Source: Eledone cirrhosa (Eukaryota). Taken from it: a stretch of 64,000 nucleotides of DNA. This document shows, in pieces, positions 1 to 32,386 of the stretch (its first letter is position 1; every line of letters begins with the position of its first letter). Made by a program: the position numbers and the translations under genes. The stretch lies in contig OZ024741.1 in assembly GCA_964016885.1 (NCBI GenBank), positions 49,786,001-49,850,000 of the forward strand, read 5' to 3'. The notes beneath the pieces were generated by a model. The model was not told the origin of the DNA and ran no database searches. It saw only the letters and a list, made by a program, of their open reading frames with translations.

Positions 1-3000
1 ATCTATGGTACAGTATAGTACAACATACTATGATATTGTCATCTATGGTACAGTATAGTACAACATACTATGGTATTGTCATCTATGGTACAGTATAGTA
101 CAACATACTATAACATTGTCATCTATGGTACAGTATAGTACAACATACTAGGATATTGTCATCTATGGTACAGTATAGTCCAAGATACTATGATATTGTC
201 ATCTATGGTACAGTATAGTACAACATACTATGATATTGTCATCTATGGTACAGTATAGTACAACATACTATAACATTGTCATCTATGGTACAGTATAGTA
301 CAACTTACTATGATATTGTCATCTATGGTACAGTATAGTACAGCTTACTATAATATTGTCATCTATAGTACAGTATAGTACAGCTTACTATGATATTGTC
401 ATCTATAGTACAGTATAGTACAACATACTATGATATTGTCATCTATGTACAGTATAGTACAGCTTACTATGATATTGTCATCTATGGTACAGTATAGTAC
501 AGCTTACTATGATATTGTCATCTATGGTAAAGTATAGTACAGCAAACTATAACATTGTCATCTATGGTACAGTATAGTACAACATACTATAATATTGTCA
601 TCTATGGTACAGTATAGTACAGCTTACTATGATATTGTCATCTATGGTACAGTATAGTATAACATACTATAATATTGTCATCTATGGTACAGTATAGTAC
701 AACTTACTATGATATTGTCATCTATGGTACAGTATAGTACAGCTTACTATGATATTGTCATCTATGGTACAGTATAGTACAGCTTACTATGATATTGTCA
801 TCTATGGTACAGTATAGTACAGCTTACTATGATATTGTCATCTATGGTACAGTATAGTACAGCTTACTATAATATTGTCATCTATGGTATAGTATAGTAC
901 AGCTTACTATGATATTGTCATCTATGGTACAGTATAGTACAACATACTATAATATTGTCATCTATGGTACAGTATAGTACAACATACTATGATATTGTCA
1001 TCTATGGTACAGTATAGTACAACATACTATGATATTGTCATCTATAGTACAGTATAGTACAACTTACTATGATATTGTCATCTATGGTACAGTATAGTAC
1101 AACATACTATAATATTGTCATCTATGGTACAGTATAGTACAACATACTATGATATTGTCATCTATGATACAGTATAGTACAACTTACTATGATATTGTCA
1201 TCTATAGTACAGTATAGTACAACTTACTATGATATTGTCATCTATTGTACAGTATAGTACAGCTTACTATGATATTGTCATCTATGGTACAGTATAGTAC
1301 AACATACTATGATATTGTCATCTATGGTACAGTATAGTACAACATACTATAATATTGTCATCTATGGTACAGTATAGTATAGCATACTATGATATTGTCA
1401 TCTATGGTACAGTATAGTACAACATACTATAACATTGTCATCTATAGTACAGTATAGTACAACATACTATAATATTGTCATCTATGGTACAGTATAGTAC
1501 AGCTTACTATGATATTGTCATCTATGGTACAGTATAGTACAGCTTACTATGGTATTGTCATCTATAGTACAGTATAGTACAGCTTACTATAATATTGTCA
1601 TCTATAGTACAGTATAGTACAGCATACTATGATATTGTCATCTATAGTACAGTATAGTACAGCTTACTATAATATTGTCATCTATAGTTCAGTATAGTAC
1701 AGCTTACTATAATATTGTCATCTATAGTACAGTATAGTACAGCTTACTATGGTATTGTCATCTATGGTACAGTATAGTACAGCTTACTATGGTATTGTCA
1801 TCTATGGTACAGTATAGTACAACATACTATAATATTGTCATCTATGGTACAGTATAGTACAACATACTATGATATTGTCATCTATGGTACAGTATAGTAC
1901 AGCAAACTATAATATTGTCATCTATGGTACAGTATAGTACAGCTTACTATGGTATTGTCATCTATGGTACAGTATAGTACAACATACTATGATATTGTCA
2001 TCTATGGTACAGTATAGTACAGCAAACTATAATATTGTCATCTATGGTACAGTATAGTACAGCATACTATGATATTGTCATCTATGGTACAGTATAGTAC
2101 AACATACTATAATATTGTCATCTATGGTACAGTATAGTACAGCAAACTATAATATTGTCATCTATGGTACAGTATAGTATAGCTTACTATAATATTGTCA
2201 TCTATGGTACAGTATAGTACAGCTTACTATGGTATTGTCATCTATGGTACAGTATAGTACAGCTTACTATAATATTGTCATCTATAGTACAGTATAGTAC
2301 AGCTTATTATGGTACAGTATAGTAGAGCTTACTATGATATTGTCATCTATGGTAAAGTATAGTACAGCAAACTATAATATTGTCATCTATGGTACAGTAT
2401 AGTACAGCTTACTATGATATTGTCATCTATAGTACAGTATAGTACAGCTTACTATGATATTGTCATCTATAGTACAGTATAGTGCAGCTTACTATGATAT
2501 TGTCATCTATGGTACAGTATAGTACAGCTTACTATAATATTGTCATCTATAGTACAGTATAGTACAGCTTACTATGATATTGTCATCTATGGTACAGTAT
2601 AGTACAGCTTACTATGATATTGTCATCTATGGTAAAGTATAGTACAGCAAACTATAATATTGTCATCTATGGTACAGTATAGTACAGCTTACTATGATAT
2701 TGTCATCTATAGTACAGTATAGTACAGCTTACTATGATATTGTCATCTATAGTACAGTATAGTACAGCTTACTATGATATTGTCATCTATGGTACAGTAT
2801 AGTACAGCTTACTATAATATTGTCATCTATAGTACAGTATAGTACAGCTTACTATGATATTGTCATCTATGGTACAGTATAGTACAGCAAACTATAATAT
2901 TGTCATTTATGTACAGTATAGTACAACATACTATGATATTGTCATCTATGGTACAGTATAGTACAACTTACTATGATATTGTCTTCTATGGTACAGTATA

Positions 3001-6000
3001 GTACAACATACTATGATATTGTCATCTATGGTACAGTATAGTACAGCTTACTATGATATTGTCATCTATGGTACAGTATAGTACAACTTACTATGATATT
3101 GTCATCTATGGTACAGTATAGTACAACATACTATAACATTGTCATCTATGGTACAGTATAGTACAACATACTATAATATTGTCATCTATGGTACAGTATA
3201 GTACAGCTTACTAGGATATTGTCATCTATTGTACAGTATAGTACAACTTACTATGATATTGTCATCTATGGTACAGTATAGTACAACATACTATGATATT
3301 GTCATCTATGGTACAGTATAGTACAACTTACTATGATATTGTCATCTATGGTACAGTATAGTACAGCTTACTATGATATTGTCATCTATGGTACAGTATA
3401 GTACAACATACTAGGATATTGTCATCTATGGTACAGTATAGTACAACATACTAGGATATTGTCATCTATGGTACAGTATAGTACAACATACTATAATATT
3501 GTTATCTATGGTACAGTATAGTACAACATACTATGGTATTGTCATCTATGGTACAGTATAGTACAACATACTATGGTATTGTCATCTATGGTACAGTATA
3601 GTACAACATACTACGATATTGTCATCTATAGTACAGTATAGTACAGCTTACTACGATATTGTCATCTATAGTACAGTATAGTACAGCTTACTATAATATT
3701 GTCATCTATGGTACAGTATAGTACAGCTTACTACGATATTGTCATCTATAGTACAGTATAGTACAGCTTACTATAATATTGTCATCTATGGTACAGTATA
3801 GTACAACATACTATAATATTGTCATCTATAGTACAGTATAGTACAGCATACTATGATATTGTCATCTATAGAACAGTATAGTACAACATACTATAATATT
3901 GTCATCTATGGTACAGTATAGTACAACATACTATGATATTGTCATCTATGGTACAGTATAGTATAGCATACTATGATATTGTCATCTATGGTACAGTATA
4001 GTATAGCATACTATGATATTGTCATCTATGGTACAGTATAGTACAGCAAACTATAATATTGTCATCTATAGTACAGTATAGTATAACATACTATAATATT
4101 GTCATCTATAGTACAGTATAGTACAACATACTATGATATTGTCATCTATGGTACAGTATAGTACAACTTACTATGATATTGTCATCTATGGTACAGTATA
4201 GTACAGCTTACTATAATATTGTCATCTATGGTATAGTATAGTACAGCTTACTATAATATTGTCATGTATAGTACAGTATAGTACAACATACTATGATATT
4301 GTCATCTATGGTATAGTATAGTACAGCTTACTATAATATTGTCATGTATAGTACAGTATAGTATAACATACTATAATATTGTCATCTATGGTACAGTATA
4401 GTACAGCTTACTACGATATTGTCATCTATAGTACAGTATAGTACAGCTTACTATAATATTGTCATGTATAGTACAGTATAGTATAACATACTATAATATT
4501 GTCATCTATAGTACAGTATAGTACAACATACTATAATATTGTCATCTATGGTACAGTATAGTACAGCTTACTATGATATTGTCATCTATGGTACAGTATA
4601 GTACAGCTTACTATGATATTGTCATCTATGGTACAGTATAGTACAACATACTATAACATTGTCATCTATAGTACAGTATAGTACAACATACTATGATATT
4701 GTCATCTATGGTACAGTATAGTACAGCTTACTATAACATTGTCATCTATGGTACAGTATAGTATAACATACTATAATATTGTCATATATGGTACAGTATA
4801 GTACAGCTTACTATAATATTGTCATCTATGGCACAGTATAGTACAGCTTACTATAATATTGTCATCTATAGTACAGTATAGTACAACATACTATGATATT
4901 GTCATCTATGGTACAGTATAGTACAACATACTATGATATTGTCATCTATGGTACAGTATAGTACAGCTTACTATAATATTGTCATCTATAGTACAGTATA
5001 GTACAGCTTACTATGGTATTGTCATCTATGGTACAGTATAGTACAACATACTATGATATTGTCATCTATGGTACAGTATAGTACAACATACTATAATATT
5101 GTCATCTATGCTACAGTATAGTACAGCTTACTACGATATTGTCATCTATGGTACAGTATAGTACAGCTTACTATAATATTGTCATCTATGGTACAGTATA
5201 GTACAGCTTACTATGATATTGTCATCTATAGTACAGTATAGTACAACATACTATAATATTGTCATCTATGGTACAGTATAGTACAACATACTATAATATT
5301 GTCATCTATGGTACAGTATAGTACAGCTTACTATAATATTGTCATCTATGGTACAGTATAGTACAGCTTACTATGATATTGTCATCTATAGTACAGTATA
5401 GTACAACATACTATGATATTGTCATCTATGGTACAGTATAGTACAACTTACTATGATATTGTCATCTATGGTACAGTATAGTACAACATACTATAATATT
5501 GTCATCTATGGTACAGTATAGTACAGCTTACTATGATATTGTCTTCTATGGTACAGTATAGTACAGCAAACTATAATATTGTCATCTATGGTACAGTATA
5601 GTACAACTTACTATGATATTGTCATCTATGGTACAGTATAGTACAGCTTACTATGGTACAGTATAGTACAGCTTACTATAATATTGTCATCTATGGTATA
5701 GTATAGTACAGCTTACTATGATATTGTCATCTATGGTACAGTATAGTACAGCTTACTATAATATTGTCTTCTATGGTACAGTATAGTACAACATACTATA
5801 ATATTGTCATCTATGGTACAGTATAGTACAGCTTACTATAATATTGTCATCTATGGTACAGTATAGTACAGCTTACTATAATATTGTCTTCTATGGTACA
5901 GTATAGTACAACATACTATAATATTGTCATCTATGGTACAGTATAGTACAGCTTACTATGATATTGTCATCTATGGTACAGTATAGTACAGCTTACTATG

Positions 6001-7190
6001 ATATTGTCATCTATGGTATAGTATAGTACAGCTTACTATGATATTGTCATCTATGTACAGTATAGTACAGCTTACTATGATATTGTCATCTATGGTACAG
6101 TATAGTACAGCTTACTATGGTACAGTATAGTACAGCTTACTATAATATTGTCATCTATGGTATAGTATAGTACAGCTTACTATGATATTGTCATCTATGT
6201 ACAGTATAGTACAGCTTACTATGATATTGTCATCTATGGTACAGTATAGTACAGCTTACTATGGTACAGTATAGTACAGCTTACTATAATATTGTCATCT
6301 ATGGTATAGTATAGTACAGCTTACTATGATATTGTCATCTATGTACAGTATAGTACAGCTTACTATGATATTGTCATCTATGGTACAGTATAGTACAGCT
6401 TACTATGGTACAGTATAGTACAGCTTACTATAATATTGTCATCTATGGTACAGTATAGTACAGCTTACTATAATATTGTCATCTATGGTACAGTATAGTA
6501 CAACATACTATGATATTGTCATCTATGGTACAGTATAGTACAGCTTACTATGGTATTGTCATCTATGGTACAGTATAGTAGAGCTTACTATAATATTGTC
6601 ATCTATGGTACAGTATAGTACAGCAAACTATAATATTGTCATCTATGGTACAGTATAGTACAGCAAACTATAATATTGTCATCTATGGTACAGTATAGTA
6701 CAACATACTATGATATTGTCATCTATGGTACAGTATAGTACAACAAACTATAATATTGTCATCTATGGTACAGTATAGTACAACTTACTATGATATTGTC
6801 ATCTATGGTACAGTATAGTACAGCTTACTATGATATTGTCATCTATGGTACAGTATACTACAACTTACTATGATATTGTCATCTATGGTACAGTATAGTA
6901 CAGCTTACTATGATATTGTCATCTATGGTACAGTATAGTACAACATACTATGATATTGTCATCTATGGTACAGTATAGTACAGCAAACTATAATATTATC
7001 ATCTATAGTACAGTATAGTACAACTTACTATGATATTGTCATCTATGGTACAGTATAGTACAGCAAACTATAATATTATCATCTATAGTACAGTATAGTA
7101 CAGCTTACTATGATATTGTCATCTATGGTACAGTATAGTACAGCAAACTATGGTATTGTCATTTATGGTATAGTATAATACAGTATAATA
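1..7190. repeat. 40-bp tandem satellite, about 180 units, open at the window start
   Basis: Unit TGTCATCTATGGTACAGTATAGTACA(ACAT/GCTT)ACTATGATAT repeated continuously, with occasional 39- and 25-nt units. Confidence 0.98.
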
Positions 7191-7285: not shown

Positions 7286-7405
7286 GGCTGAATGTGAGTC
7301 ATCGCTATCTAACAACTGGCAGAAAAAGTGTTACCCTTTACGCAAAGAACAAAGGACATACAATCTCCACATCGAAGGAGGCATTTGGATGGAATAAGAT
7401 TTCAA
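7286..7405 (+). CDS. PKD1L1: Exon A, C-terminal half of a PKD domain (LNVSHRYLTTGRKSVTLYAKNKGHTISTSKEAFGWNKIS)
   Basis: ttcttacag acceptor, gtaag donor, 120 nt, phase 1-1; SHxY..G...VTLxAxN PKD pattern. Confidence 0.85.
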
Positions 7406-14534: not shown

Positions 14535-16197
14535 AACCACATTTACTGTGTATACTGGGTGTTTTGGGTCATGTCACCTACTTGACCACATTTACTGTGT
14601 ATACTGGGTGTTTTTGGTCATGTCACCTACTTGACCACATTTACTGTGTATACTGGGTGTTTTTGGTCATGTCACCTACTTGACCACATTTACTGTGTAT
14701 ACTGGGTGTTTTTGGTCATGTCACCTACTTGACCACATTTACTGTGTATACTGGATGTTTTTGGTCATGTCACCTACTTGACCACATTTACTGTGTATAC
14801 TGGGTGTTTTTGGTCATGTCACCTACTTGACCACATTTACTGTGTATACTGGGTGTTTTTGGTCATGTCACCTACTTGACCACATTTACTGTGTATACTG
14901 GGTGTTTTTGGTCATGTCACCTACTTGACCACATTTACTGTGTATACTGGGTGTTTTTGGTCATGTCACCTACTTGACCACATTTACTGTGTATACTGGG
15001 TGTTTTTGGTCATGTCACCTACTTGACCACATTTACTGTGTATACTGGGTGTTTTTGGTCATGTCACCTACTTGACCACATTTACTATGTATACTGGGTG
15101 TTTTTGGTCATGTCACCTACTTGACCACATTTACTGTGTATACTGGGTGTTTTTGGTCATGTCACCTACTTGACCACATTTACTGTGTATACTGGGTGTT
15201 TTTGGTCATGTCACCTTCTTGACCACATTTACTGTGTATACTGGGTGTTTTTGGTCATGTCACCTACTTGATCACTTTACAGAGTGTACTGGGTGCTTTT
15301 TGTCATGTCACCTACTTGATCACTTTACAGAGTGTACTGGGTGCTTTTTGTCATGTCACCTACATGACCACTTTACAGAGTGTACTGGGTGCTTTTTGTC
15401 ATGTCACCTACATGACCACTTTACAGTGTATACTGGGTGCTTTTTGTCATGTCACCTACTTGACCACTTTACAGTGTGTACTGGGTGCTTTTTGTCATGT
15501 TACCTACATTACCACTTTACAGTGTGTACTGGGTGCTTTTTGTCATGTCACCTACTTGACCACTTTACAGTGTGTACTGGGTGCTTTTTGTCATGTTACC
15601 TACATTACCACTTTACAGTGTGTACTGGGTGCTTTTTGTCATGTCACCTACTTGACCACTTTACAGTGTGTACTGGGTGCTTTTTGTCATGTCACCTACT
15701 TGACCACTTTACAGTGTGTACTGGGTGCTTTTTGTCATGTTACCTACATTACCACTTTACAGTGTGTACTGGGTGCTTTTTGTCATGTTACCTACATTAC
15801 CACTTTACAGTGTGTACTGGGTGCTTTTTGTCATGTCACCTACTTGACCACTTTACAGTGTGTACTGGGTGCTTTTTGTTATGTCACCTACTTGACCACT
15901 TTACAGTGTGTACTGGGTGCCTTTTGTCATGTTACCTACATTACCACTTTACAGTGTGTACTGGGTGCTTTTTGTCATGTCACCTACTTGACCACTTTAC
16001 AGTGTGTACTGGGTGCTTTTTGTTATGTCACCTACTTGACCACTTTACAGTGTGTACTGGGTGCCTTTTGTCATGTTACCTACATTACCACTTTACAGTG
16101 TGTACTGGGTGCTTTTTGTTATGTCACCTACTTGACCACTTTACAGTGTGTACTGGGTGCTTTTTGTTGTGACATCTACATGACCACTTTACAGTGG
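14535..16197. repeat. Bipartite minisatellite: 49-bp units (to ~15270), then 48-bp units
   Basis: TGACCACATTTACTGTGTATACTGGGTGTTTTTGGTCATGTCACCTACT then TGACCACTTTACAGTGTGTACTGGGTGCTTTTTGTCATGTCACCTACT. Confidence 0.97.
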
Positions 16198-23305: not shown

Positions 23306-23649
23306 TGTGATGGTTGCATGTACAACATGTGTGAACAATGTGATGAATGCTAATGAGAAGCTGACACTAGAAACTACATGTAATAACTGTGGTGATGATG
23401 CAAATTCCCTGACATATGAATGGAAAGTCTTCCGAATTATTGATGATAAATACAATAGAAACTTCGGCGCTCATGACTATGGTAAATGTGTTGAAGCCAA
23501 TGGTTCATCTTACATACATATCAAATTGAATAACACCAAGGAAAACAACAACACTAACACAAATACTACACAACCACCAACTACAACTACAACTACATCA
23601 ACAACTTCATCAGCCATTCTGCCCAAAATGCCACCTATGTATGATCCAG
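23306..23649 (+). CDS. PKD1L1: Exon H, REJ plus start of Thr/Asn-rich insert (VMVACTTC...CNNCGDDANSLTYEWKV...TTTTTTSTTSSAILPKMPPMYDP)
   Basis: ttgtctag acceptor, gtatgt donor, phase 2-1. Confidence 0.92.
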
Positions 23650-24674: not shown

Positions 24675-24716
24675 TTGGAAGAATAGCGGAAGGCCCTTTT
24701 CCAGAATACATAGATG
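24675..24716 (+). CDS. PKD1L1: Micro-exon W, 42 nt ((V)GRIAEGPFPEYID)
   Basis: poly-T...catttctag acceptor, G|gtaagt donor, phase 1-1, open frame. Confidence 0.7.
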
Positions 24717-25680
24717 GTAAGTTTGGTATTGCTTCTATATTTTCTTTCTTGTCTAATTTTCATTTTTAGAATGTTTTAAATAAGGTCCTTAAATGAGTTG
24801 TAACTAGGTATCTAAAATCAGGAGCTTTAGAATCTCCTTTCTCTCCCTTTTCTCTAATACAGCAGTTAAAATTGTTGTATTATGTGGGCTTCATATTTTT
24901 TTTTGGGGGGGCCCTTTTGTTATAATTATTGATTGTTTGATAAAGTATTTGAACAACTTTTATTGATTCAAAATTACAGTCCATTGTATATATTTACAAA
25001 CTAGAAGAGAGAAAACTGGAAAAAAGGCAGCATACTATTTTTTTTTAGTATTTCATATACTCTCAGATTCCAAATAATGGGAGGGTTGGAATAAGATAGA
25101 GGGAGGGGGTCGCTAATTTTTCTAGGTTATCTCTGAAAAACCAAAATTAGTTGTTTAATTTACATATTGAGATTAAATTTTGCTAATCTATCTCCTGCAA
25201 AATGTTATTTTCTGCAACAAGTAATTTTCTTTAGGCATTAAAAAACATTATACATGTCAAAAGAAGTATATTACTAGAAATCCCTTTTATTATAAAATAA
25301 ATAGGATGGGTTTGGGGGTTTCAATATGTAAAACAAATGACTAATTCTGGGGGGGGGGTTTTAAATCAACGGAGGCAACCTAGAAAAATTATCAATTTTT
25401 TAATCCCCTCATGTATTTATTCCAACTTCCCCGTTTATTCCAGCCTCCCACTTATTCCAACCCCACCTATTATTTGGGGCCCGAGAGTAGACGATATTCA
25501 TCTTAAACAGAGGTATTTTGGATATATTAGGATGAAGTAACATTTCAAAAAGACATGGTCTTCCAATATTTTACTCTGTCCATAATGATCAGAACTAAAT
25601 TTTTATCTTATTTTCCTTTTTGTGTGAAGAGACTTACAAATTTTATATTTCTCTTATGTACTAACATTTTCTTCCTACAG

Positions 25681-25728
25681 AGGTTTTTGAAGAAAAACCT
25701 AAAGGTAGCAGACCAGATCGTAGGCAAA
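25681..25728 (+). CDS. PKD1L1: Micro-exon X1, 48 nt ((E)VFEEKPKGSRPDRRQ)
   Basis: Perfect TACTAAC branch point, ttttcttcctacag acceptor, gtaagc donor, phase 1-1. Confidence 0.78.
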
Positions 25729-26690
25729 GTAAGCAGAATTTTCATAAATTTTGATTTTTTTTTGCTTTTCTCTCTTTTTTTTTTTTTTTTTCATTTCTTA
25801 TCAGAGAAAATCTCTCAACCAATATCAATCACTCTTACTCATCTACACCATGATGGATATCAATAGAATACCATTTTATTTTGTGAACACAGAATTAACA
25901 TTAAAGATAAAATTAAAAGTAGATCAATCAAGGTGTTTTTATACTTAGGAATTACTTGTTGATTCCTAAGTTGTTGTATTTCCTCAGAGTTAGTCCTTCT
26001 TACAGATTCTTGTCTCTCCAACACTTTGACTTAATCTTGGGCCGCTGATAGCAAAGTTCTTATCGTTGGTGGCTTGCCTTATCGATGTATCAGGTTATGC
26101 CCGTGAGGGTGTCTGGTTGTTTCAGTGCCTTAGCCCCACTATCACCTGCAGTAATGCTGCGAGTGTGTTGGCTTACCTCAAAAATTTCTGTTGACCCTTC
26201 TGGTGTATGGTATGGTGTGGTGTGCAGCCAATTATTACACTTGGTGGTAAATTGATGGTTGTTATTGTTTGTTTGTTTTTTTCCTTTTCTTTTTCTCTCA
26301 CTTCGATCATACACTTTTGTGCATTATATTTGTGAGGACCCTAGCAATAATTAATTATATTTGTTATATGTGACCCTCACATATTTTCATTCAGTAAGAA
26401 TTATAAACAATTTTTAATGTTATTGATTAATCTGCAAATGGTTATTGATGTTTTCGATAAATCAAAACAATGATGAAATGAATAAATTGATTTGAACTAT
26501 TTTACAAAGCTAACCAGGTGCACTTCATCAAGGCATCAATACTTAATTTTTAATTATTATTTATCAATATTATTATTGTTATGTCTACAATATATTATGT
26601 CTTGACTTTTAATCCATAGTTCATCAGTTAGTTGTTTCATCAATCATATAAATGTTGGCTGAAAATAGAATATATCTTCAATTGTATTCC

Positions 26691-27105
26691 CTCAAACCAC
26701 GGTACTGTGGTCTGCAATGCAGGGGACAAGAAGACAAACAAATACCAGAGATTGTCCGGTCACTTCCTCTTCGCACCAGTTGCCAGTGAGACATCAGGCA
26801 TCCTTGGATCTTGTACTGCCGAGCTCCACCACAAAAACAGAACATCAGCAGCTCGTCTGAGGAAGAAACTCCACGAGGTGGGGTGGCTGTTGCAGTGGGC
26901 GTCACTGGCTATTATTCGCGGAATGTTTTTGCAGTTTTGTCCGCGGGACGCAACCTCAACATCACCATGCTCTAGGTCCAGAGCCCCTCATCTTCTTCCT
27001 TTCCCTCTCCATTTCTTCTGTGGTCCTAGAGTCCTTGCTTTTCACCTCCTTTTCCTCTCATTTATGGCTTTTATAGTCCTTTTCTCCTTCTAATTTTAAA
27101 TAGTA
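26691..27105 (+). mobile_element. CRE-like non-LTR retrotransposon 3' fragment inserted in one copy of the local duplication
   Basis: KKTNKYQRL..HFLFAPVASETSG...LLQWASLAIIRG. The segment is absent at the homologous position (~30738) of the second copy. Confidence 0.55.
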
Positions 27106-27212
27106 TTTTATTAGATATATAAACCAGAGTAGGAGAATATATGATAAAATGGCAGTTATGGAAATTTTTGATTTCTGTGAATTTTCACTATTTTTTTTTT
27201 TTCAATTTTTAG

Positions 27213-27248
27213 TCGACATCCCATTGCATCCTCTTCAGGAGGAAACTG
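27213..27248 (+). CDS. PKD1L1: Micro-exon Y1, 36 nt ((I)DIPLHPLQEET)
   Basis: poly-T acceptor tttttag, G|gtatgt donor, phase 1-1. Confidence 0.72.
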
Positions 27249-27367
27249 GTATGTTTAATTTTTTACTTCATTATTTCCATGTTGAAGTTGAATAATATTT
27301 TCATTTTTGTGTGAAGAGACTTACAAATTTTATATTTCTCTTATGTACTAACATTTTCTTCCTACAG

Positions 27368-27415
27368 AGGTTTTTGAAGAAAAACCTAAAGGTAGCAGAC
27401 CAGATCGTAGGCAAA
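27368..27415 (+). CDS. PKD1L1: Micro-exon X2, 48 nt, identical to X1
   Basis: Same branch point, acceptor, exon and donor sequence as 25681-25728. Confidence 0.75.
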
Positions 27416-29388
27416 GTAAGCAGAATTTTCATAAATTTTGATTTTTTTTTCGATTTTTTTCATTTCTTATCAGAGATAATCTTTCAACCAATATCAATCA
27501 CTAGAATAATAACCAGCCTTGCTGCATTTCACACATTTCTTTTGTAAGAAAATGATGATTGATTTTAAATCAGTGATATAATTTATGGAGAAAAAATAAA
27601 GGGAAAATGTTAAAAAAGTAGGGGCATTAACTAATAATTTTTGTTGTCATAATTCTAGTAATGTTTTACCATAGATAAAATGTCTAAATTAGCCAAATTT
27701 TACTATAAAAGAGAGGTACTTTTTTTGTTGATTTATATTTAACTAATAGAAAAACTCTGTGATAATAGAGGTTCCAATACTCAAGTTATGGGCTTTCAAA
27801 ATTTTCACTATAGGGGGTTTAACCCCCATTAGGGTGTCTTAATATTATTGAAATTTGCTAAAATTTTATGAATAGGCATCATATCTTGTCATTTACCTAT
27901 GGTTTAAATTTCATATAAATCGAAAGGAAAAAATTTTCAGAAGGGGTTTGTGCCCCCGGGGAATCCTTTCATTAAAATGAAATAAGGTACTCTGCTATAG
28001 AAGCGAGGTGCTTTTTTTGTTGATTTACATTTAATTAATAGAAAAACCCTATGATAAAAATGAACCCTTTGATTAAAATGAAATATACTTATCCAAGTAC
28101 CCTGGGCAATGTAGTTTCAGAATATATATAGTTATGGGGTCTATCTCCAAAACAATAGGAGGAGTTCGTGAACAAACAAACAGACAGGAACTACAACTTT
28201 ATTATATAAAATGAAAATTATTGTGTACAGTGCTCAGGTGCATTACAACTCATCAAAGGTCCATGAATAATATACAAATGTCAGGAAAGTGAACAGTGTG
28301 TGGGTCATGATATACACACAGATACATGCATGTGTGTGTATGGAGGGGTAATATTAGGTGTAGTGTTGGTGAATTTCAGGAAGTATGGAAGCTAATTTAT
28401 TGTAGGTTATTCTCTCTTTAACCCTTTAGTATTTCCATTACTCTATATTTACTGTTGTATTTTCACAGTAAACACTTTATTTCACATAACATCAGTATGA
28501 GCAGCTGGGTACGGCCAGTTTAAATGCTAAAGGGTTAAATATGTTTAGATCATTCTATATGTTTGGCTAAATATTAAATTCTTTATTATTTCTATGTAAT
28601 TTTATCCTAAATATTTATTGTCTGATTAAATAAAAGCACAATCTTTAAACAATATTTCAAGCTATCTATATCATCAGCAAATTTGATATATAATATATAT
28701 GTTTATGAAATAAACATGATTCTATGTCGTGTAACATTTTGCTGTCTGTAACACAGTCTAATGCATAGGAATCCTAAGAAGAAATTGTTCAATACATGGG
28801 GCAATTCCATCAGCAAAGGCACAGACCCTCATGAGAGACACATTCAGGCAACAAAAATCAAATGTGACCTCAACAGAGCATAGTTAGTCAACAACTCGAA
28901 TAAAGCCATGGAAAATATATCTCCTATGTGTGGTCATTAATTCTGTGATAGAATCACACACAGCAGCCATCTTTGGTCACAAAAGTCAATCAATGGAACA
29001 AAATCAAAGACATTATCTAACTATAATATTATAAGTATCGGTATAATATTAAGTATCGGTAGAGGGTCGGACGCCATGCTTTGACGCATAGAGTTACGGA
29101 CCTTGCCATTCTGAGTTCAAATCCCGTCGAGGTTAACTTTGCCTTTCATCCTTACGAGGGTCGATAAAATAAAGTACCAGTAATGCACTGGGTAGTTGCT
29201 GGCCTTGTGCCGAAAGAAGAAACAATTATCTAACTATAATATTCTATTATAGTTCAACTATATTATTAAATCTTAACAAAACTACTATATCCATATTTTT
29301 ATACCAAAGAAAAGTGCATATGGCTAGATTTGAAATTACAGACCTAGTCAATGAAGTACAGTTACTGTCCTACTGAGATGCAGATTCT

Positions 29389-29426
<38 letters not shown>

Positions 29427-30851
29427 AAGTTATGTTGGTGCCACAACATCCAGGCCGAAACAAATGAGATCGTGTAGGTGTCACGACAAAAAAAAAACAC
29501 ACAGTCCATGCTGTAATGTGGCCGTGTAGGCAACACGGTAAAAACCTGCCAGCCCCACACTGTAAATGTGGTTGGTGTTAGGAAGGGCATCCAGCTGTAG
29601 AAAACCCGCCAGACAGTCCACGCTGTAATGTGGCCGTGTAGGCAATACGGTAAAAACCTCCCAGCCCCACACTGTAAATGTGGTTGGTGTTAGGAAGGGC
29701 ATCCAGCTGTAGAAAACCCGCCAGACAGTCCTATGCGAGCAAGACAATCACTCTTGCCTCAAGTGGGAAAACCCCCGTCCCAACCCATGCAAGCGTGGAA
29801 CACGGACGTTAAACGATGATGATGATGATGATGATGATGATATCTGTTATATATATATAATATATATATGTATGTAATATATATATTATATCATCAATAT
29901 AAGCCCACATTCCATGCTGACATGAGTTGCACAGTTTGTCATGGTGTGAGACTAAACAGGCTGGAGAGAGCTCATATATTCCATATTTGGCATGGTTTCT
30001 ACAGCTTTCTAATGGCAACCCCTTTAGAGTGTACAAGGTGCATTTTATCAAGGCACCAGCACCAGAGATGTCAACATATACTTGGTCTGACTGAAGAGGC
30101 TTCTTTACCATGTATTGTCTTTATTCAATTACCAACCATTTTACAAAGAGTACCAGGTGCACTTCATCATCATGGCATTAATATTTTTTTTTTTTTTTTA
30201 TTATTTATCAATATTATTCCTTGTGGATTGGCAGTATCGGTAGAGAGTCGGACGCCATGCTTTCCAGCATAGTTACGTCCCTTTACGATCTGAGTTCAAA
30301 TCCCGCCGAGGTTGACTTTGCCTTTCATCCTTACAGGGTCGATAAAATAAAGTACCAGTAATACACTGGGTAATTGCTGGCCTTGTGCCTAAAAGTAGAA
30401 ACAATTATTCCTTTAGCATTTACATACTATTGTATTTTGGTGGTAAAGGCTTTACCTTACAAAATTATCTCACATAATACTGAATCTATGAGATTTTGAT
30501 GTTATTTACTTTGTGAACAATACCTTAATGTTAGTATGAGTGGCCAGTTGCGGCCGGTTTGAACAGAAAGAGGTAAGAGAATTCTGGCTGGATACGGCCA
30601 GTTTAGATGTTACAGTGTTAATATTGTTGTGTCTACAATAGATTATGTCTTAACTTTCATTCCATAGTTCATCAGTTAGTTGTTTCATCAATAATATAAA
30701 TGTTGGCGGAAAATAGAATATATCTTCAATTGTATTCCATAACGTATTAGATATATAAACCAGAGTAGAAGAATATTTTATATGATGAAATGGTTGTTAT
30801 TGAAATTTATGATTTCTATGAATTTTCACTATTTTTAAAAATTATTTTTAG

Positions 30852-30893
30852 GCTATAGCAGAAAACCATCGCATACTCAACAGAAGAAATCTG
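30852..30893 (+). CDS. PKD1L1: Micro-exon Y2, 42 nt ((S)YSRKPSHTQQKKS), paralog of Y1
   Basis: atttttag acceptor, G|gtatgt donor, phase 1-1; upstream intron homologous to that of Y1. Confidence 0.72.
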
Positions 30894-32200: not shown

Positions 32201-32386
32201 ATCCAATTGCATCTGCTAAGAGCAAGCCACACATTGAGGAACATATTGTTAGAAAATCACGTCGGGAAGTTGTGTTAAGCAACAATGATACTTTAAGTAT
32301 GATGAGTGCTCAGTCTCTTGTTATTAAACCAGGTGTGCTGTCTCAGGGACGAGACTACTTCATCAGTGTAAATGTCTCAAAAAAAG
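32201..32386 (+). CDS. PKD1L1: Exon I, end of insert and return to REJ (PIASAKSKPHIEEHIVRKSRREVVL...SLVIKPGVLSQGRDYFISVNVSKK)
   Basis: ttttcag acceptor, gttggt donor, 186 nt, phase 1-1. Confidence 0.88.

Follow-up and report, generated by a model that had tools for sequence, protein, structure and literature searches.

Tandem duplication of predicted micro-exons in a variable REJ-domain loop of a polycystin-1-like gene from Eledone cirrhosa

Introduction

The described systems closest to the locus analyzed here are PKD1L1-type proteins and the REJ proteins of sperm, PKDREJ in primates and suREJ1-3 in sea urchins, which have the REJ domain and membership of the polycystin-1 family in common with the Eledone gene. 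Passages of PMC4700764 report, for primate PKDREJ, positive selection within the REJ domain and adjacent to it (citing Hamm et al. 2007) and, for suREJ, selection within its carbohydrate-recognition domains (citing Mah et al. 2005). According to parts of PMC1934368, the human PKDREJ gene lacks introns and is specific to the testis, human PKD1L1 has high expression in Leydig cells and heart, and the majority of sea urchin REJ genes are active across many tissues; zebrafish pkd1l1 is described in a section of PMC5318412 as expressed in Kupffer's vesicle. Invertebrate TRPP sequences were not resolved into vertebrate subgroups in the relevant part of a cephalopod TRP survey (PMC13402157), and none of the motifs sought was present in the one supplementary file of that survey examined.

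Two further bodies of work concern the behavior of duplicated exons and genes. As described in sections of PMC3906575 on accelerated exons in segmental duplications, the same test as the one used below gave the same kind of signal, a duplicated exon diverging above its flanking introns. That study used an 800 bp reference intron and false-discovery control and filtered out tandem domains, whereas the Eledone comparison involves one 36-nt exon and 318 intron columns, with no such control. In interlocus conversion mosaics, as set out in part of bioRxiv 10.1101/2025.10.29.685298, neighbouring segments of a tandem pair diverge unequally, as they do here (approximately 2%, 10% and 30% in the Eledone pair); those cases are whole genes with population data, whereas the Eledone case is a sub-gene cassette from one genome. 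Accelerated duplicated exons, selection in disordered regions and conversion mosaics are all already-described kinds of phenomenon, and in the open literature searched we found no publication on the micro-exon duplication described below.

Results

The window analyzed is a stretch of 64,000 nucleotides of E. cirrhosa DNA (assembly GCA_964016885.1, contig OZ024741.1, positions 49,786,001 to 49,850,000 of the forward strand), and it contains the middle of a large gene. We modelled 23 exons on the plus strand between positions 7286 and 54608, all of them bounded by AG/GT; joined, they give 1,139 codons with no stop. The gene model is 54% identical over 902 aligned columns to CAE1153380.1 of the cuttlefish Acanthosepion (Sepia) pharaonis, a protein named PKD1L1. 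A full-length cuttlefish relative comprises 3,195 amino acids and carries PKD repeats and REJ, GPS, PLAT and channel domains (Pfam), and 2,924 of its 3,195 residues were matched in order by the window together with 20 neighbouring stretches. A Pfam scan of 13 window exons (E ≤ 0.1) placed REJ on five and PKD on two, with REJ after the PKD repeats, the arrangement that marks the polycystin-1 family. Neighbouring stretches match the GPS, PLAT and channel parts of the cuttlefish protein exon by exon, an assignment made through the Pfam hits of that protein. One REJ exon searched against the genome matched only itself. On the strength of the stop-free exon model, the cuttlefish match, the domains and this single genomic REJ exon, the locus is, as judged from its sequence, an intact cephalopod polycystin-1-like gene, PKD1L1-type by the names of its hits.

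Seven of the eight protein-search hits bear a PKD1L1-type name and the eighth is uncharacterised; the nemertean and brachiopod hits are named likewise, so that the PKD1L1 label follows the database names of the hits and not a tree. No PKDREJ, PKD1 or suREJ sequence was among the protein search results, in which the named relatives were PKD1L1 or PKD1-related. The human PKDREJ gene is intronless, whereas the Eledone gene has 23 exons in the window alone, and no lectin or carbohydrate-recognition domain occurred among the nine Pfam hits of the cuttlefish protein; neither structural hallmark of PKDREJ and suREJ was therefore found in the Eledone gene or its cuttlefish relative. The link to rapidly evolving gamete-recognition proteins that the earlier note had drawn from the REJ domain thus finds no support here. 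Protein searches for close relatives, one of which came back empty, brought up sequences from cuttlefish, chiton, limpet, nemertean, brachiopod, crinoid and fish, none of them close enough for dN/dS.

The exon at 23306-23649 (plus strand) has an open frame in the model and holds a conserved REJ stretch (Pfam REJ, E=2.9e-5) followed by the Thr-rich start of a loop; its first 72 amino acids are 66% identical to cuttlefish PKD1L1. The loop is closed by the exon at 32201-32386 (plus strand), in which the folded REJ domain resumes and which is 63% identical to the cuttlefish protein. Between these two REJ exons lie five predicted micro-exons, all on the plus strand and all of phase 1-1: W (24675-24716, 42 nt, with AG/GT bounds and the frame kept), X1 (25681-25728, 48 nt), Y1 (27213-27248, 36 nt), X2 (27368-27415, 48 nt, equal to X1 at 48 of 48 positions) and Y2 (30852-30893, 42 nt). 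Since all share the same phase and have lengths divisible by three, any combination of them keeps the reading frame. Genome searches returned two copies each of the X block and the Y block. The earlier note described Y1 and Y2 and missed the second duplicated pair, X1 and X2; because X is also duplicated, the duplicated unit is X then Y, and this tandem duplication is one way in which the Eledone loop differs from its family match, cuttlefish PKD1L1. Among the two X-to-Y spacers and among W, X and Y, we found no convincing homology (10 of 11 comparisons lay within the shuffle range, and the eleventh was a gapped AT-rich match), a result compatible with one tandem event or with two separate duplications.

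Both Y copies have AG/GT bounds, a length divisible by three and no stop. In leave-one-out scoring, the acceptors of Y1 and Y2 reached 11.0 and 9.0 and their donors 9.3 and 9.3, values also spanned by the remaining exons of the gene. Within Y2, at 7 and 10 nt from the 5' end, lie two extra AG dinucleotides, which would shift the frame if used.

As the earlier note had described, the 3' 28 nt of Y1 and Y2 align without gaps, with seven mismatches in six codons (PLHPLQEET against PSHTQQKKS, including EE against KK), and the 5' parts differ by a frame-keeping 6-nt indel. Its statement that none of the differences is silent did not survive recounting. The third-position difference in CTT/CAA is silent by one of the two paths, which leaves 6.5 non-synonymous and 0.5 synonymous differences, and in the 5' part, omitted from that count, the GAC/TAT difference is silent by either path. 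Over the whole Y exon there are 9.5 non-synonymous and 1.5 synonymous differences, and the copies are approximately 30% apart; silent sites also differ, at 17 to 20%. Approximately three quarters of Y sites are non-synonymous, and the chance that all seven of seven substitutions are non-synonymous is 0.11 to 0.18. Every differing codon was amino-acid-changing in 29 to 38% of neutral simulations with seven substitutions (four settings, 20,000 runs each). Whole-exon dN/dS was approximately 2 to 2.5 (Fisher p=0.13 to 0.53), a non-significance that says little because the power of the test is approximately 0.2 (0.22). Given this neutral chance and the non-significant dN/dS, the non-synonymous-only pattern is no evidence of selection.

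The acidic-to-basic switch proposed in the same note stands as a contrast of net charge (-3 in Y1, +4 in Y2) but not as a direction, since the cuttlefish outgroup cannot polarise it. Y1 and Y2 scored 119 and 120 against one cuttlefish protein and 110 and 120 against the other, with one or two in-register identities, and because they score alike the derived copy is not identifiable. The exchange of EE and KK requires just two G/A transitions.

The fixation of A-to-I edited codons is an idea from cephalopod editing work. We rejected it as a source of K to E changes in this pair, in which two of the 11 differences are A/G, without enrichment.

Four of the 11 differences fall at alternating positions over 8 nt, next to the 6-nt indel. 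At the same place, the 5' end of Y2 and the end of the upstream intron make up an imperfect inverted repeat (window 30845-30866; 8 of 10 pairs), and a match as good was found at 37 of 14,000 nearby centres. A single template-switch event is a possible source of these clustered differences.

The earlier note further held that similarity looks greater between the upstream introns than between the exons, and this was borne out. Intron segments A0 and A, whose first copies span 26495-26690 (plus strand), have their only long second genomic match at 30134-30213 (11 of 75 columns mismatched) and 30618-30738 (8 of 121, against 26570-26690), and segment B (27109-27212, plus strand) differs from its partner at 30745-30851 by 12 of 102. 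Pooled, mismatches in the four paired intron segments amount to 33 of 318 columns, or approximately 10%; the three long ones were not heterogeneous (p=0.17). Against this pool, the excess of divergence was nominally significant in the 3' part of the exon (7/28, p=0.030) and in the whole exon (11/36, p=0.002), but not when the 3' part was set against the nearest segment (7/28 versus 12/102, p=0.13). Dropping the 50 bp nearest the exon (introns 24/250) gave p=0.024 for the 3' part and 0.0013 for the whole exon. The excess could not be put down wholly to GC content, as two corrections showed, one from intron rates (P=0.026 and 0.001, respectively) and one from the repeat's rate ratio (P=0.064 and 0.005). 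When directly adjacent differences alone were merged, we obtained p=0.04 for the 3' part and 0.0005 for the whole exon; merging differences up to 1 base apart gave 0.03 and 0.06. Non-synonymous Y sites (9.5 of approximately 27) also exceed a 10% clock, with P of approximately 0.001 to 0.002.

Other comparisons were less one-sided. X and Y exons pooled against all paired introns gave 11/84 versus 37/477 (p=0.14), and at a 20% clock the whole Y exon gave P=0.09. Some 28-column window reached seven mismatches in 56% of neutral simulations, a result to which we give little weight because the position of the exon is not a free choice. Although the exon-over-intron excess comes from one exon pair singled out post hoc, it has not been wholly accounted for, and it is a better argument for selection than the absence of silent changes.

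The age of the duplicated block is not uniform. The first copy of the X block (25609-25833, plus strand) is approximately 98% identical to 27296-27502, differing at 4 of 207 columns (6 by an alternative gap placement), compared with 33 of 318 in the Y introns (p=0.0002). With X1 and X2 identical and the Y introns approximately 10% apart, the block is therefore of mixed ages. The near-identity of the X block points to gene conversion or to X having been copied later; in this cassette, conversion is indistinguishable from a second, later X duplication.

Dispersed repeats, none assigned a strand, differ between the units. An old repeat at 26037-26427 is found in unit 1 alone and has many genomic matches at 72 to 82%, most of them with the same ends. 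A second element of unit 1, a fragment of approximately 410 bp from the inside of an old dispersed repeat (26691-27100, recognized by its family copies), lies upstream of Y1 alone, at the site where unit 2 has a 7-nt filler. Among 40 copies scored of 4,285 candidates, 39 others matched it at 75 to 79%, and it differs from five copies by 19 to 21% substitutions. One other copy of its family has a 328-codon open stretch nearby. In unit 2 alone, two adjacent short dispersed repeats lie between A0 and A (30216-30621, delimited by their junctions), with a clean empty site in unit 1; the right-hand one is 84 to 90% identical to other copies, consistent with the 10% clock as a lower bound.

If the 410-bp fragment was inserted after the units split, the neutral expectation for the exon rises to approximately 21% and no excess remains (P=0.39 and 0.135). 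Under that clock, which is based on five copies, the paired introns are too alike (P=0.0004). The dating of the fragment is uncertain: compared with other copies it is truncated at both sides, and it could therefore be an older remnant that unit 2 has lost. The identity of the X exons, the 10% divergence of the Y introns and a one-copy repeat that looks older than 10% together make the intron clock unreliable.

We also considered the protein context of the loop. In an AlphaFold model of the cuttlefish region, residues 73-181 had pLDDT below 50 and no secondary structure and the flanks folded as strands; the model was built on a 13-sequence alignment (pTM 0.54), so shallow that low confidence predicts disorder without proving it. 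No solved structure of the REJ region was found. The two cuttlefish proteins show twice the variability in the loop (23 of 117 aligned residues) that they show in the REJ flanks (45 of 511; p=0.0015), and in the stretch corresponding to W to Y 13 of 46 residues are different. Their loops also differ in length by 11 residues, which are absent from the genome-derived cuttlefish protein and present in the other loop-spanning members of the cluster, a gap that fits a further micro-exon, skipped, missed or lineage-specific. Between anchors the loop measures 138 amino acids in Eledone versus 118 and 128 in cuttlefish, and PKD1L1-named proteins of chiton and fish likewise have a long hypervariable REJ insertion. 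Over 13 homologues, the segment that spans the loop has a net charge ranging from +10 to -35, and on that scale the predicted shift of seven charge units between Y1 and Y2 is small.

A basic motif, RKSRR, lies at the end of the loop (window 32250-32270, in the closing exon), with KSRRK as its cuttlefish counterpart. R-X-K/R-R motifs occur in the chiton, nemertean and brachiopod loops (3 of 13 homologues); the strict motif is absent from the Eledone gene. The basic motif might be a convertase cleavage site.

Discussion

The locus looks like a case of ordinary tandem exon duplication in a variable loop. We put the probability that near-neutral drift and a mosaic duplication history account for the differences between Y1 and Y2 at about 60%. 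A two-exon cassette, X then Y, would have been duplicated in tandem inside a PKD1L1-type gene, probably lengthening a REJ-domain loop that is predicted to be disordered and weakly constrained. Such a loop would tolerate most amino-acid changes, and with that tolerance the non-synonymous share would lie near the neutral three quarters and the Y copies would likely have drifted at close to the neutral rate. The apparent exon excess would then arise from the small sample, from the clustered changes beside the 6-nt indel and from an intron clock set too young, parts of the block having been homogenised by gene conversion, copied later (the X block) or constrained by splicing.

Several points weigh against drift. 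Weak constraint alone gives exon divergence equal to that of the introns, not higher. The whole-exon excess survives near-exon trimming, both GC corrections and the merging of adjacent differences. Because segment B passes straight into Y, any conversion must have halted at the exon. Finally, the intron segments are not heterogeneous, and the younger repeat of unit 2 fits the 10% clock.

Positive selection after the duplication, as the earlier note proposed, would have split Y1 and Y2 into acidic and basic modules of the extracellular loop that change its binding or processing; any connection with gametes would be a further step. Of that proposal, the duplication, the REJ setting and a nominal exon excess remain. 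The case built on the lack of silent changes does not, since chance yields such a pattern in roughly a third of cases and dN/dS is not significant. The exon excess favors it and is robust to GC correction and to the removal of near-exon intron, as do the non-synonymous excess over the 10% clock and the retention of frame and strong splice sites in both Y exons. From the literature, parts of PMC3906575 describe duplicated exons as enriched among accelerated exons in primates, and a section of PMC3218827 reports more positive selection in yeast disordered regions. The signal, however, comes from a single pair chosen post hoc, whose sister pair X shows 0 of 48 differences, and it depends on the assumed age. 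Within the exon dN/dS is non-significant and silent sites differ as well, the cuttlefish outgroup cannot show which copy changed, loop charge is not conserved across homologues, and PKDREJ and suREJ are absent among the named relatives. We regard selection on Y as unlikely, though deserving serious attention because the exon-over-intron excess is not fully explained away. If it did act, the variable REJ loop in receptors of the PKD1L1 type would probably have a function, and the locus would offer a small testable element for studying what such cephalopod receptors sense.

A more elaborate scheme, in which conversion holds X identical, selection drives Y to acidic and basic forms and splicing sets the charge of an extracellular sensor loop, strikes us as distinctly doubtful. 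Doubt is stronger still for the idea that one of the Y copies, or one X-Y unit, enters the transcript seldom or not at all and is degenerating into a pseudo-exon. The internal AG dinucleotides of Y2 would suit such decay, but both copies keep AG/GT bounds, frame, a stop-free sequence and splice scores within range, and decay would not raise exon divergence above that of the introns.

An assembly error that placed two divergent alleles in tandem, for which the X blocks lie at an allele-like distance and for which none of the contigs listed spans both units, is almost certainly not the explanation, given that the units bear different old repeat insertions and that contig depth in one run was 15.7 in unit 1 and 14.4 to 16.1 in unit 2 against 10.9 to 13.3 outside, with no halving in the units in the other two runs either. 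These depth data come from three runs of one sample, probably the assembly's source. Y1 was not among the contig pieces listed; Y2 was covered by a contig without differences in all three runs (one sample).

Favoring drift with a mosaic history, we draw two cautions from the locus. Selection cannot be demonstrated from seven differences in nine codons, and where a duplicated block has mixed ages the introns nearby can mislead as a clock.

Two tandem arrays were seen elsewhere in the window. A 40-bp array of approximately 182 copies (window 1-7183) occupies most of one intron of the gene, and a 48-bp array of approximately 34 copies (window 14536-16196) has expanded from the tail of a common dispersed repeat.
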